Below, piece by piece: positions 1 through 15,560 of a DNA stretch of 64,000 bases. Below the pieces are notes generated by a model. That model searched no databases. It saw only the letters and a list, made by a program, of their open reading frames with translations, and had not been told where the DNA came from. A program made the position numbers and the translations under genes. Location: assembly GCA_002245135.1 (NCBI GenBank), contig NGBS01000315.1:1-64000 (forward strand). Direction: 5' to 3'. How positions within the stretch are numbered: the first letter of the stretch is position 1; each line of letters begins with the position of its first letter. The stretch is from Proteromonas lacertae. Taxonomy: Eukaryota.

Positions 1-1971
1 TTGAATTGCTTCAGGTAACATTGACTTAACTTTTTGAATTACCATAATACAAGTCAGTGATAGCAGGTAATCTACCACCTGACAGCATACGAATTATTTC
101 ATAGTAGTCGAAAATGAAGTACCACATTACATACAAGAACCCTGATGTTGGTAGTTTAGATTTTTTCCATAACCAATAAGCCTAAACATGTCATTACTAT
201 TGCACGAACATATTTTCATTGCATGATCTACTTCAAACATTTGAGGAGTAACTCCACCTACCAAATATGACTTCATTGTATAGTATATTTGTGGAAATAT
301 CCTAAATACATTCTCTACACACAGGAACAAATTACCAGCAAAACCATAAAATCAGATTCACGTAATGAATCAAGTGCTTTTTGAAATTGTGAATTTTCAA
401 ATTGTGCCCATGAACTACAAGCAGTTTTCACTAACCAATAGCTATTTCATATTTTTGTTTATTATCTGCATTCACCCACTCTTGAGGAAGTGAGTGACCT
501 AACTTCTCTCTGTTATAATCAAAGTTAATGAAATCTCTACTATTCTTGTGATGCTATTTCATTCAGTTCTCTATATTTATCTTCATTAATCCAATGTAGC
601 CTGTCCTTCATCCATATCTATAGCACTATTCACTCAGTTCTTGATTTTTTGGATCTAATGCCCATCTATAAAATTTTGATCTTTCTAATATCTCTTGATC
701 ATCCATATATCTTTGTGCCTTTTGATTATTCAATGCAATATATTCTTTTACTTTTTCAGCTCGATTCGGATCAAAATTATATGGATCTGAATATTGATTG
801 ATCTTACTTACTCCATCAACTAATTCATTTTGCAAATACTCCTGCTGTAATAATAGTTTGTTATAATATTCTATTGCATCTTTATCATTACCTGTTAATT
901 TATCCCAAGTTGAGGTCAACCAATCTTGTCTATAATTTTTATAGGCTGCTAATTGAGGATTCTTTTCTATAATCTCTTGTAATGATTTATAATTTTGTAA
1001 TTTAGGAAATTTTTGTAACAAAGGATCTGTAACTCTATTCATTCCATTATCATATGCCTGAACATCTGCTTCTGTAACATATTCAGGCCAATTCAAAAGA
1101 TAGCTTCTTGGATTAGATGTATCTAATGTTGCTAATGGGAATGTTCCTCTTAAATGTCCTGTTTTTATGTTCACGATCTAGCATATCATAAAAATTAATA
1201 TGATAATTGTTAGGCAACAATTGAAGCATAATTATTAGTTAATGCATATTGAACTTCTTTTCGAGCTTGTCTATTCAAACCTGGACTAAATAATTTATCA
1301 TAATTCCAATTATAATCATATCCTACAGTTTCTTTTGGTATATATGGTTGAATATATTCTGGTATTTGACTTGGCTGTAATTGTGATGTTCCATTATAAG
1401 CAGCACTAGCAGCATCATACATTTGTTGTCTTGGATTAGTAATAATGACATGCTCATTAGGACCAACACTTTGACCCACTCTTAATGGTATAATACCACT
1501 ATTACCACCTAATTTCTTAGTAGCCAAGAGATGCCTCCGTGGGATACTCTCTAATTTTAGTTTATTTCTTCTGTGATGTTTCTTATGTTTGAAATGAACA
1601 TGTTTTCTTCTACCTGAACCTGTCTTTGGATATCCATCTAAAGACATACCAAATAAACCATAATTTACTTTAGGCCATAAATGATATTCACTACCCATAC
1701 CATTAATTAAATTACACACATCTGATCGTGCTTCTGGAACACTACGACCACATTGATATTTGAAATAATGTAAGTAATCTGCCAATTGATCTATTGTTCC
1801 ACCATAGCTGGAATACTTTGATATAATATCTAATGGCAATCCTACATTTTTACATACATTTTCTAAATCTTGTTTTGTATTATTCATAACCATTTGCTTA
1901 ACTGATTCATAATCATATTGATTAATCAAAAATGGTTGTAATTTTTCCATAATAGCATCTACATTATATCT

Positions 1972-2007
<36 letters not shown>
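1972..2007 (-). repeat. (CAA)n microsatellite encoding polyQ
   Basis: Run of ttg triplets on + strand. Confidence 0.9.
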
Positions 2008-2008
<1 letters not shown>

Positions 2009-2117
2009 ATTGGTTGTGTGTTATTTTGCAATGTTGGCTGGGCTGCTGCCGCCGTGGCGGCAGCAGCACCTGCCATCATTCCGGCGTAACTTGCAGCATT
2101 TGAACTTTGATTATTAT

Positions 2118-2285
2118 AACCTGCACCAGTTGCAGGTATTGAAGTTGTATTATTATAACTGGCCCAGTTGTAGTACTATTAGTTGTATTATTATAACTGG
2201 GGGCAGTTGTAGTACTATTAGTTGTATTATTAGAACTGGGGCAGTTGTAACATTCGATGCTTGAATATTTGAAGTGGCCGGCGCA
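2118..2285. repeat. ~39-bp tandem repeat with AACTGGnnCAGTTGTA core
   Basis: cagttg cores at 2127, 2165, 2204 and 2242, followed by aagtggccg at 2272. Confidence 0.85.
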
Positions 2286-3497
2286 CTCGTCGAATTTGTT
2301 GTTGTTGAAGGAGTAGCACCAAATATACCTCTGAACCAATTGTATATATTACTTAGTGATGTAGTAAAGAAACCCATTATACTATCTAACTTAGAATGAA
2401 TCCATTGTGACATATCCATTGGAGGAACTTGTTTCCAACGATTATATACCAAACTGACAAAATTAGGAGTTAACATTGACACAAAAGATGCTGCATTAAC
2501 CCATGCTGGGGATAAACCAAATATCCATTGCATAACACCACTATATCCTATTCCTGCATTTACTAAATACTTTAATATTGCACCAACAGTACTATCAGGA
2601 AATAGTATATCAAACACTTGTGAAATAGAACCTAATGTCATAGTACATAAGCAGAACTTCACACCAAATTTCAACCAATCGTATGTTGTATTACCTGAAA
2701 AATATTTATCAATTTTTGAAATTAATGATTGTTTTTCTCTTTCTTCCATTGTAGCTATCTTTCTCTGATATTCTTCATTCCTTGCTTTCACTATTTCATT
2801 TTCTTGCTGTAATTCATACTCGTGATCTTTTTGTGTTGTACCAGCATTATTATTCCATCTTGGATTGGATTGATATGAATTTACATTGTACTGTGATCCC
2901 CATTGTTGTAATGGTTGTCCTTCAATTTGAGATAAAAATGGATTTTGCCATTGATATGTTAAATTCTCTGGTTGAGCATAATAATCTGAGTATGGCTTGT
3001 TATACTTACCTATGTTCCTATAATATCGTCCAAACTGATCTGTGATGCCTGACATATATAATTTGTATTTCATCTCATCAGTCATGAAATTGTTTTTTGT
3101 TGCGTTTATATTTGGATTAACAGGCTTTGATAATTCCTCTATATCATCCTCATCTCCTATAGTATCATAAAATTTATTGAAACTAGATTTAGGATCATAG
3201 ACATCTAATCCATATGTACCATTGCCTTTGTCAACAATGGCTGTTGGGTTAGCCATGTGACTGAGATCTAGTTTTATTTTTTTGTTATCTTTCACCTTGT
3301 TGTAGATGATCTTTTTCAATTTTCTCTTAAGTGCATTATGATACACAGAGGGATTCTCAAATCAATTGCTTCTTCTTTTGGTGATGATTGTTGCTTATGC
3401 TTTCGTTTAACACCCATAAAATATATAAAACAATATAAAAAATAGAGAAACAATACTATTAGAAATATAGCCGTTATTGATATTATAGATGATATTA

Positions 3498-4559
3498 TTA
3501 ATGAATACCCAGTTCATCAAAAATTCTGTTTAACTGTCTATCAACTCTATCAACATTATCCTCATTCTCATCTTCTGGCTCCCACTCTTCTATAAACTGT
3601 TTTAAATCTTCTTCATCTACTTCTTCATCACTTGCATTAGGAGTATAGAATTCATCATCATCTTCTTCTTCTTCTTCTTTTGGTTTATTGAATTCAATAT
3701 CTTCATTTTCATCATCATCATCATCATCATCTGGCTTTCCATTTGCAACCCATTCTTCATATTGTTTAATATTTTGAGCTTCTTCCCATAATTCTTTTAT
3801 TTTAGTTTTCTGAGCTTCTGTAAAGTCATATTCATCAAATATTTGGTCTATTTGTTCTTTAGTAAAATTTTTAACATCGTCAACAGTAATTTCATCATCA
3901 TCATTATCATTATCATCATCATCTTTAACATCAGTTGACGGCTGTACTTTAATATCTGTTTCTGCTTTAGGAGTAATCAATTTATTCAACTTCTACTATT
4001 ATATATAAATCAAAACATATAGCATATATACCATTTGTTGCATTTGTGACATCTTGATTTGGTTAATTGGATTACTCATATACTCACCCATCTGCATCCT
4101 AGTCTTTGCACTTGCTTGAGCCATTTCATTGTAATTAGGTCTATTCATATTCACATACATGTTAGGACCAAACAAATGCTGATCATCAATCTCTCTTAAA
4201 CTATTAGCAAGTGGTATAGCCATTGCATTACCTTCATGTAATGATGTAGATAACATAGAATCGATTGCATTCTGTCTCTCTAAAAATTTTTGCTCATCAT
4301 TCAATTTACGAATATCACCTTCATTAGGAGGAGTGTCTTTAGAATTCAACTTACTAATCTCATCTTTTATTTCATTTAAACGACTGTTTCTCATATCCAC
4401 TAAATCTTTCGCATTCTCTCTATAAAAATTATTATATAAACTCTGATAATATTTGTCATGTCCTTTATATCCTTCACCTCTCCGTATCTTCTTTCTTTTG
4501 CCTTTGCCTCTCATCCGAGCAAACACAGCAAGTAGTATTTTCTTATTTAGTTTTTTCAT
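3498..4559 (-). CDS. Viral protein with basic N-terminus (RMRGKGKRKK) and acidic C-terminus; probably two exons (intron 3993-4031)
   Basis: ORFs 3999-4559 and 3498-3989 are in the same frame, separated by a gtatatat...aatagtag segment resembling host introns. Confidence 0.55.
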
Positions 4560-14368: not shown

Positions 14369-14424
14369 TTTATTTCGCTTTTTTATATTATATTATATTA
14401 TATTATGTTTCTTTTGGTTAAACT

Positions 14425-14530
14425 TGTATCTTACAACTGGGCCCAGTTGTAAGATACATCACAATTTAAGTTACAACTGGCCCCAGTTGTAACTTATATT
14501 ACAATTCAAGTTGTCAAGTGGCCGCCGGAT
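14425..14530. repeat. Tandem palindromes at 40-bp spacing
   Basis: Perfect 34-bp palindrome 14425-14458; 14-bp-arm inverted repeat 14467-14496; degenerate third unit aagtggccg at 14517. Confidence 0.9.
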
Positions 14531-14601
14531 ATAGCAGTACCAAACACCAAAAAAACAAACACACATAACATTACATAAAAAAATATATATAAAGAATTAC
14601 T

Positions 14602-14973
14602 TTAATTATCCATATTAGGAACTGGAATACCATACTGATAATGCCTGCCATTATGCACAACAATACGATGTGGATCATTCTTTGGCGCGGCTCGTGGCCC
14701 GGCTCGTCTTGGTTTACGTTTTGCTCTATCTTTACTTCCTTTTGGTCTTCCTCTTTGTTTAGGTGGATTAGCAGCTAATAATCGTTCATACATTTTCATT
14801 AATTGTCTATATTGTAATTTAACTTTTGTTTTGTTTTGTAGTGCATTCTTTACTTTGTCTCTATACAAATCATAGCTCTTTCTCCATTTACTCCTGTTAA
14901 CTGATTTAGGAATATATGTATTCCAGTCTTTACTAATTTTAAACCCTTTTGGCCATCCTCCATAATAAGACAT
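14602..14973 (-). CDS. Basic DNA-binding protein with AT-hook
   Basis: KQRGRPKGSK AT-hook; starts MSYYGG; Lys/Arg-rich. Confidence 0.65.
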   Translation of the reverse strand: MSYYGGWPKGFKISKDWNTYIPKSVNRSKWRKSYDLYRDKVKNALQNKTKVKLQYRQLMKMYERLLAANPPKQRGRPKGSKDRAKRKPRRAGPRAAPKNDPHRIVVHNGRHYQYGIPVPNMDN

Positions 14974-15077
14974 GTTGTGATTTTTATAATTGATATTATT
15001 TAAAATATAGTAACTATTAATAGTATGTTTATCAAACAAAAACAAACATATATAATAATAATAGAATTTTTAAGTAT

Positions 15078-15560
15078 TTAATCAGAGTCACTACTACTAC
15101 TACTATCACTACTACTACTAATTCCATCAGCAACATTTCTATCAACTGGATGTATGTGATAAAAATTCCCTCCATTCCATTGATAACTCATATGATGAAA
15201 AACATATTTTTTAAATTTTTGAGGAATACAATCACCATCTGCATACTCATGTTCTCCATTTCTTAATTTTCTATTCATTACTAATATTGAAGCTCTTCTG
15301 TCATACCCATAGGTTTTGAGGTTTACCATTAATTGATCGCCATGATGTCTATAATCACCTAGTACTTCTGGATCATTTCTATTAGTTCTGAGTGAACCAC
15401 ATATAAACACCTTTACTTTATTTCTTTTTAATATTTTCATTGTTTTAAATGGAAATTGAATAACCCATCTATGTGCTCTATTGTCTCTATATCTATGAAT
15501 ATAAAAAGCATATTCACCGTTAGGTTGTCTAAGCATATTATATGTTAAATGGTCAGGCAT
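15078..15560 (-). CDS. Viral hypothetical protein, His-rich C-terminal motif
   Basis: 160-aa intronless ORF; YVFHHM...HIHPV; Ser/Asp tail. Confidence 0.6.
   Translation of the reverse strand: MPDHLTYNMLRQPNGEYAFYIHRYRDNRAHRWVIQFPFKTMKILKRNKVKVFICGSLRTNRNDPEVLGDYRHHGDQLMVNLKTYGYDRRASILVMNRKLRNGEHEYADGDCIPQKFKKYVFHHMSYQWNGGNFYHIHPVDRNVADGISSSSDSSSSSDSD

Follow-up and report, generated by a model that had tools for sequence, protein, structure and literature searches.

Endogenous Polinton-like viruses (PLVs) are common in protists and a capsid cluster from Proteromonas is on record, so that the class of the element described here is not new. Tables S1, S3 and S4 of Bellas et al. 2023 (PMC10120064) list 285 major capsid protein (MCP) hits for Proteromonas lacertae in one cluster, print an MCP, place the cluster outside the Maverick-Polinton-Adintovirus columns (Table S4), and give an MCP count for none of 10 Blastocystis assemblies (Table S1). 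The PLVs of Proteromonas are treated as known in the accessible text of a 2026 preprint (10.64898/2026.07.28.741278), PLV genomes are reported to span 14-40 kb (PMC12220804), and section 3.4 of Starrett et al. 2021 (PMC8502044) describes, from a Blastocystis data set, the Blastocystis midsize eukaryotic linear double-stranded DNA (MELD) virus, whose virion proteins are recognisable only by HHpred. We analysed a 64,000-nucleotide stretch of DNA (the window), and consider it very probable that its left part is an endogenous PLV in which a penton and an MCP build the shell, an A32-type ATPase packages the DNA, and the ATPase gene is, in this copy, split by a small transposon.

Set beside the described systems, the locus resembles each in part. 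The 450-aa Proteromonas MCP printed by Bellas et al., compared by eye, is clearly another protein than that of the window, and has motifs in common with each of the two window frames, in the same order (e.g. FNYSFT.NSS.GP, F.W.INDF.Y.P.Y and KFFE.LNFGS, by eye only); it has a Foldseek match to PBCV-1 at E 4.9e-9 and comes from an AT-rich opalinatan host. Membership of the Bellas cluster means 25% identity over 30% of the length, the window MCP being compared with it by shared motifs only. It is likely that the window virus is one more member of the PLV family already catalogued in Proteromonas. The suggestion of a possibly undescribed lineage, made in a first-pass annotation of the window, is weakened by these motifs and by the description of the MELD virus. 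The latter, set beside the window by description only, carries an adintovirus-like protein-primed DNA polymerase B (pPolB) and integrase, neither of which was found in the window. Virophages (mavirus and Sputnik; Maveriviricetes) provide the best PDB Foldseek matches of the MCP model and long penton structural alignments; on the other hand, PDB sequence searches gave no similarity to them, their MCPs have 500-600 aa versus about 480 here, capsids of the nucleocytoplasmic large DNA virus type outrank the virophage MCP in the VIA search, and the virophage protease was not found in the window. All three structural hallmarks of PLVs are present, namely a double-jelly-roll MCP, a single-jelly-roll penton and an A32/FtsK ATPase, the last split by a miniature inverted-repeat transposable element (MITE). 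As ends, replicase and integrase were not found in the window, the element can be assigned neither to the Polintons proper nor to the virophages. The literature consulted on Blastocystis Polintons, Proteromonas capsids, PLV spliceosomal introns and polinton protein VI, with bioRxiv supplements and figure images outside it, does not describe this locus, and the accessible parts of 10.1101/2024.03.23.586382, 10.1101/2022.05.25.493380, PMC10675990 and PMC11161782 have no bearing on it.

The features that carry our assignment are the following.

12416..13375, minus strand: predicted minor capsid protein (penton), intact, 319 aa (homologs, AlphaFold2 model, Foldseek, PDB structural alignment)
10914..12384, minus strand: predicted double-jelly-roll MCP gene, about 480 aa, one frame shift within 11590-11612 (match to the intact homolog P0001 and its model)
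10133..10843, minus strand: A32/FtsK-type packaging ATPase, N-terminal 237 aa (homologs, PF04665)
9508..10132, no strand: non-coding foldback transposon (MITE), 625 bp (TGTTGT...ACAACA ends, 6-bp target duplication ATTATA on both sides)
9355..9501, minus strand: displaced native C-terminal tail of the ATPase (resumes P0016)
28236..28818, no strand: host-region member of the same MITE family (33-bp terminal repeats, 5-bp duplication AATAA)

The first-pass annotation had described at least 15.5 kb of compact open reading frames (ORFs) with a minor capsid, major capsid and ATPase block, and this description held when ORF cover, gene order and each assignment were tested. ORFs cover 0.79 of positions 600-15600 versus 0.55 of 17300-64000, and the GC content is 30.4% in the first 15.5 kb versus 25.7% in the rest (17300-64000). 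The co-oriented block on the minus strand runs from 13375-12416 through 12384-10914 (two frames, overlapping at 11590-11612) to the P-loop ORF that starts at 10843.

Structure prediction had been proposed for both capsid proteins and was carried out. The penton has 9 homologs among 426 candidates (37-69% identity), and its model, with a predicted local distance difference test score (pLDDT) of 71.5, matched by Foldseek the named minor capsids of klosneuviruses, Qinghai Lake virophage and mavirus (best E 1.9e-7). Structural alignment to the PDB gave a single jelly-roll, with no row at Z 8; the mavirus penton (Z 6.7, root-mean-square deviation (rmsd) 6.9, 232 aligned) and a penton-sized Sputnik chain (Z 6.5, rmsd 7.9, 257 aligned) were among the few long alignments. 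On its predicted fold 12416-13375 is a virophage/PLV-type single-jelly-roll penton. The N-terminal MCP frame (12384-11590) matched five longer proteins among 1158 candidates (469-484 aa, 44-62% identical, all from Logan). Intact P0001 (484 aa) is 62% identical to this frame and 76% identical to the frame of the C-terminal half (11612-10914), and since both match the same protein they represent a single gene interrupted by one frame break. Among 1.84 billion representatives, a profile search returned 23 proteins at E <=0.001. The fold was predicted on P0001 from a five-row alignment, and the model (pLDDT 44, predicted TM-score (pTM) 0.42) has two beta-rich halves. Foldseek matched it to viral models of TVS1, Qinghai Lake virophage, mavirus, African swine fever virus p72 and ascovirus capsids, and, in the PDB, to the mavirus and Sputnik MCPs on top (E 3e-7 to 6e-6), while the best 7 of 48,161 chains in VIA-align were all double-jelly-roll capsid or scaffold proteins (Z 8.3-9.5, rmsd 4.0-7.2, 142-191 aligned). 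Atlas clusters for the MCP were viral (0.96), some with Capsid_N on 15-33% of members or Sputnik_MCP on 10%, and the recognition value was low. Judged on the low-confidence model of this intact homolog, the product of 10914-12384 is a double-jelly-roll capsid protein.

For the ATPase, 382 candidates yielded 84 homologs, the best 92% identical; PF04665 (Pox_A32) is matched by 11 of 27 aligned members, but not by the piece in the window at E 0.001, and PHROGs gave a terminase match (E 5.6e-6). A quick tree of 95 rows, from which P0099 and partial locus ORFs were omitted, places it on an end branch of 0.042 in a 17-row clade (support 99) together with P0016-P0031, all from Logan. Related ATPases P0044, P0045 and P0062 come from a Lithocolla globosa transcriptome assembly, so that the wider ATPase group also occurs in this data set of a nucleariid amoeba.

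Two observations concern the insertion in the ATPase. First, the ATPase aligns to P0016 up to residue 237 (position 10133) and picks up at residue 238 (position 9501), on the far side of the MITE. The tail is identical to P0016 at 12 of 22 positions (pair E 2e-5) and carries two residues, R and F, whose conservation in alignment A2 is 90% or more; because these lie in the displaced tail, the truncated ATPase is probably inactive. An ATPase ending at 10076, as first annotated, is ruled out, since the native tail resumes at 9501 behind the MITE. Secondly, the insertion has terminal inverted repeats, a target-site duplication, no coding capacity and related copies, as MITEs do. Its arms are 99% alike over 223 nt and 95.7% over 278 columns, and the host-region copy is collinear with it: a match of 300 bp is 71% identical (E 9e-33), and the end-to-end alignment has 360 identical columns out of 642. 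As a MITE family of the host DNA sits in the viral ATPase, the virus copy has been in the host nucleus. The shared MITE is the best evidence of residence of the virus in this genome and partly stands in for a test with reads. The inverted pair 9514-10109, the strongest repeat of the element, was also considered as a fused viral terminal repeat and ruled out, given that it interrupts the ATPase gene, comes with a target duplication and recurs in related form in host DNA. Overlapping the host MITE is another foldback, larger and diverged (arms 28288-28374 and 29331-29417; region 28236-29417), which also resembles the ATPase MITE. A central GGCTTGA repeat is kept in both MITEs, with target duplications of unequal length (6 versus 5 bp), and we take this repeat to be a candidate reversed Pol III B-box.

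The Polinton-like morphogenetic module and the endogenous state postulated at first are thus both supported, by the homology or predicted fold of three genes, by their order and by the MITE shared with host genes. The window would then hold the right-hand part of an integrated PLV, whose penton and double-jelly-roll proteins would form an icosahedral shell into which the A32-type ATPase would pump linear DNA. With its ATPase split by the transposon, this copy is likely unable to package itself without the help of sister copies.

Environmental relatives are distant. Among the matches listed, the ATPases of four environmental PLVs from metagenome or IMG/VR contigs (L008, L001, L012 and L015) are 28-37% identical to ours, and they fall outside its 17-row clade (support 99, quick tree). 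Neither the ATPase alone nor the MCP alignment found a close relative in IMG/VR and JGI contigs, where the ATPase alignment gave only distant relatives among the matches listed. Profile A3 found the MCP in 8 of 19 environmental loci, and a small protein-VI-like gene is shared. L008 (1-16151) is a near-complete environmental PLV with an S74 chaperone fibre, a penton-sized ORF, MCP and ATPase in the same order as in the window, a protein-VI-like ORF, and a pPolB, an rve-chromo integrase and a D5-like domain, none of these last three being found in the window. L001 and L015 carry a C5/C48 protease, L012 an rve domain and L015 a superfamily 1 (SF1) helicase; these gene contents come from 30 proteins of 6 of the 19 loci.

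Our interpretation should be weighed against several points. The P0001 model is poor at its pLDDT and pTM, with TM-scores of 0.2-0.3; it depicts a homolog and not the MCP of the window itself, and most of what the VIA rows align is the first barrel. Sequence searches of the PDB with capsid alignments A1 and A3 matched no solved capsid, and Pfam matched neither MCP frame. The link to environmental MCPs consists of three weak rows (E ~1e-5 to 1e-4) that we added to profile A3, and the penton profile matched 0 of 19 environmental loci. Adenovirus pre-protein VI in the PDB appeared only at E 1.1, as the last of 5 rows, for the small protein at 5336-5629 described below. Finally, integrase, polymerase, protease, terminal repeat and viral target duplication were not found in the window.

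How intact this copy is depends on the nature of its frame breaks. The best-frame path contains about 11 of them: the MCP has one, another lies near 4800, the stretch near 2150-2290 accounts for two and 1-625 for seven. They are densest towards position 1, and the only internal stop on the path is near 1180, in the start region. Breaks without nonsense codons that crowd towards one end have the look of consensus error. A host kinase paralog near 33600 also changes frame. In the text of Bellas et al. 2023 (PMC10120064) drawn on here, frame breaks in endogenous viral elements are described as frequent assembly artefacts. We infer, with less certainty than for the element itself, that most frame shifts are assembly errors and that this is a young copy, disabled chiefly by the transposon. 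The same virus could instead be an old decaying fossil with nothing functional left, its frame shifts being real mutations; that the breaks are real is a serious possibility, which we nevertheless hold to be the lesser one. Such a fossil would explain the number of breaks, including that in the MCP, the MITE insertion, and the replication and integration genes not found in the window. It is harder to reconcile with breaks that lack internal stops and crowd towards position 1, with an intact penton, with an ATPase still 92% identical to an intact relative on so short an end branch, and with MITE arms that are 96-99% alike between perfect duplications.

The remainder of the element has the following content.

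8393..9094, plus strand: possible single-stranded-DNA-binding protein, a lead only (atlas 0.91-0.92 to viral clusters)
6292..8383: four ORFs without significant Pfam/PHROG match (6292-6651 plus, 6720-7259 plus, 7318-7953 plus, 7970-8383 minus)
5687..6217, minus strand: small basic protein with a predicted amphipathic helix, candidate protein-VI-like core protein (homologs behind the ATPase in other loci)
5336..5629, minus strand: paralog of 5687-6217 (29% over 62 columns, pairwise E 5e-7)
4631..5246, minus strand: gene without significant Pfam/PHROG match, one frame shift
3498..4559, minus strand: basic-then-acidic gene without family match, in frame across a candidate 39-nt GT-AG intron, 4031-3993
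1210..3256, minus strand: gene of about 680 aa without family match, two frame shifts near 2150-2290 (best-frame path, element codon usage)
1..1185, minus strand: gene running off the left end, about seven frame shifts (frame-shifted coding path)

Several ORFs first listed as separate genes turned out to be parts of longer frame-broken or spliced ones (3256-1210, 5246-4631, 4559-3498, and 1185 to beyond position 1). The coding path through 1-625 scores -1.3, versus -45.5 +/- 9.8 in 100 shuffles (maximum -20.6) and -58.8 on the other strand. With 22 ORFs each searched in Pfam and PHROGs, nothing in the element rose above the curated cut-offs of Pfam. The ORF at 8393-9094 has no Pfam match, a weak PHROGs match and a nearby atlas cluster with Pox_I3 on 12% of members; its product may coat single strands during strand-displacement replication.

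The small basic proteins at 5687-6217 and 5336-5629 recall adenovirus protein VI by eye. A three-sequence profile found a relative of 5687-6217 directly behind the ATPase in L004, L005, L008 and L011, while L003, whose homolog has the same position, was used to build the profile; a PDB sequence search with 5690-6217 gave nothing relevant. Element ORFs (4536 aa) contain the motif xGxG plus two basic residues 7 times; the figure for 500 shuffles is 0.37, and 21 host ORFs (8077 aa) have none. This contrast is inflated, because the motif was defined after the sequences were seen. The motif may mark protease sites, in which case the protein-VI-like products would be packaged, cut at the glycine motifs by a cysteine protease, and break membranes on entry.

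A filter for short GT-AG introns that bridge open frames retained 30 in the host region, 2 in 15.7-17.3 kb and, as the only candidate in 1-15700, that at 4031-3993 in the element; the 164-aa frame downstream of it lacks a Met and is in frame. Since one gene appears to need splicing, the element genes would be transcribed in the host nucleus; next to the shared MITE, the intron candidate also speaks for residence of the virus in this genome. Transposon-made introns are recorded in dinoflagellate PLVs in the accessible text of PMC12166617, and a viral intron is therefore a detail and not a first. As a candidate viral promoter, AACGGCTATA occurs exactly three times (3466-3475, 6276-6285 and 10876-10885), each time upstream of a minus-strand element gene, and 8 times with one mismatch versus 1.6 expected; segments 3438-3486 and 10847-10896 are 86% alike over 50 bp. 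An ACAACTG-type palindrome word occurs three times within the 3256-1210 gene (2160-2250), beside its frame breaks, possibly as a binding site or origin.

The first-pass annotation recognised no gene for replication or integration in the window, and Pfam, tblastn and phmmer agree. These methods found neither an rve or tyrosine integrase nor a replicase in 1-17300, although one of two phmmer positive controls (L008 MCP) also failed, nor, in the window, the Polinton/Maverick set of pPolB, retroviral-type integrase and adenain-like protease. In the search for relics of pPolB, rve, D5, SF1 helicase and protease, tblastn with 153 locus ORFs matched only the ATPase and MCP, and 7 of 7 relic queries were blank in phmmer, as was 1 of 2 controls. 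The coding path runs off position 1, so that the element continues or the contig ends there, and the missing genes may therefore lie outside the window. Polymerase, integrase and protease would be located to the left or be supplied in trans, as in environmental L008, L001, L012 and L015. We think it rather doubtful that the virus belongs to a PLV clade specific to gut opalinatans and still circulating (relatives up to 92% identical occur in raw-run assemblies), equipped with host-type introns and 3' signals, structural-only, and copied and integrated in trans. Less probable again is a non-autonomous, structural-only element that never had polymerase or integrase and was copied and integrated by a helper, or a capsid block kept by the host. 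The host-type intron fits this account, as do 15.5 kb without recognisable replicase or integrase, given PLV genomes of 14-40 kb; yet the element leaves the window at the left, where the missing genes may be, relatives with this ATPase type carry replication and integration genes, and the broken ATPase speaks against selection by the host.

Intron-bearing host genes lie to the right of the PLV, as first annotated. From about 17.3 kb they include kinase/leucine-rich-repeat (LRR) paralogs, a v-SNARE, a PH-RGS protein, a RhoGEF, EGF repeats and a kinesin, with introns of 28-45 nt (modes 30 and 34 nt). The word TGTTTGTT occurs 16 times versus 5.0 expected (0 of 100 shuffles). In host DNA it comes second out of 28 words of equal composition, and it lies 30-82 nt behind ordinary stop codons. 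The kinesin at 36425-39469, intron-free and of about 1010 aa, is a kinesin-2 (KIF3B 462 bits, next class 309). Kinesin-2 is the motor of intraflagellar transport. According to the sections of Lind et al. (PMC12129017) used here, cilia genes are lost in all Blastocystis, KAP3 counts are 4 in Proteromonas versus 0-1 and RGS counts 75 versus 2-3, GC is 27.0% in Proteromonas and 21-23% in tortoise Blastocystis, and no TGTTTGTT-type motif is enriched in either low-GC group. The label "Blastocystis-like" is half supported: the short introns and the enriched TGTTTGTT agree with it, whereas kinesin-2 and the MCP family indicate a flagellated relative such as Proteromonas. On sequence features, the host appears opalinatan-like, and kinesin-2 leans to Proteromonas. 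Dispersed kinase and LRR genes (17316-20574, 33316-36363, 54021-57303 and 30363-31262) are up to 76% alike in DNA, the copy at 30363 running into 139-bp intron-exon repeats of tetratricopeptide-repeat size, and teneurin-type EGF-repeat surface proteins lie at 42945-44090 and 60518-62968.

Between the capsid block and these genes lie the following.

13461..14063 plus, 14132..14368 plus, 14602..14973 minus, 15078..15560 minus: four ORFs without family match (ORF calls)
15863..16589, plus strand: two-intron gene without Pfam match in the junction zone, host or viral (host-type introns 16081-16114 and 16281-16313)

The right border is not fixed at 15560 but is somewhere at about 14.4-17.3 kb, and GC and ORF composition shift gradually across 15-17.5 kb. 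TGTTTGTT lies 41 and 30 nt behind the stops of 14602-14973 and 15078-15560, and for this reason their viral origin is unproven. A pair of palindromes (one perfect, 34 bp) of the design ACAACTG-G/C run-AGTT is found at 14425-14500. The segment 16723-17235, between the 15863-16589 gene and the first sure host gene, contains a 110-bp direct repeat pair (70%) and hairpins at 16922-16973 and 17153-17235, and is a candidate element end. No inverted repeat pairing both element ends was found within the window, Rfam gave 0 matches in positions 1-30000, and exact look-up of 10 window proteins in a protein collection gave 0 of 10. A mis-join in the assembly, with host DNA attached to a virus copy that is free or integrated elsewhere, would fit the lack of a junction signature, the poor assembly of multi-copy elements and the seeming drop in quality towards the left end, but is the least probable account, because the MITE family of the ATPase is present among host genes, which places this copy in the host nucleus even if the junction is wrong, and because composition changes gradually over 15-17.5 kb.

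In conclusion, the locus adds a gene neighbourhood to a capsid family that Bellas et al. cover, in the tables used here, with MCP rows. With a low-GC Blastocystis as host, the locus would give that genus its first endogenous representative of the family, given 0 of 10 assemblies in those tables. The penton, MCP and ATPase can serve as probes for a clade absent from the IMG/VR and JGI scans made with the ATPase alone and the MCP alignment. A host MITE within the packaging gene makes nuclear residence evident without reads and represents one way in which hosts disable such viruses, and the intron candidate suggests expression that takes place in the nucleus and depends on the host. Should elements of this kind become active again in anaerobic gut protists, the question of a giant-virus helper in that environment arises.

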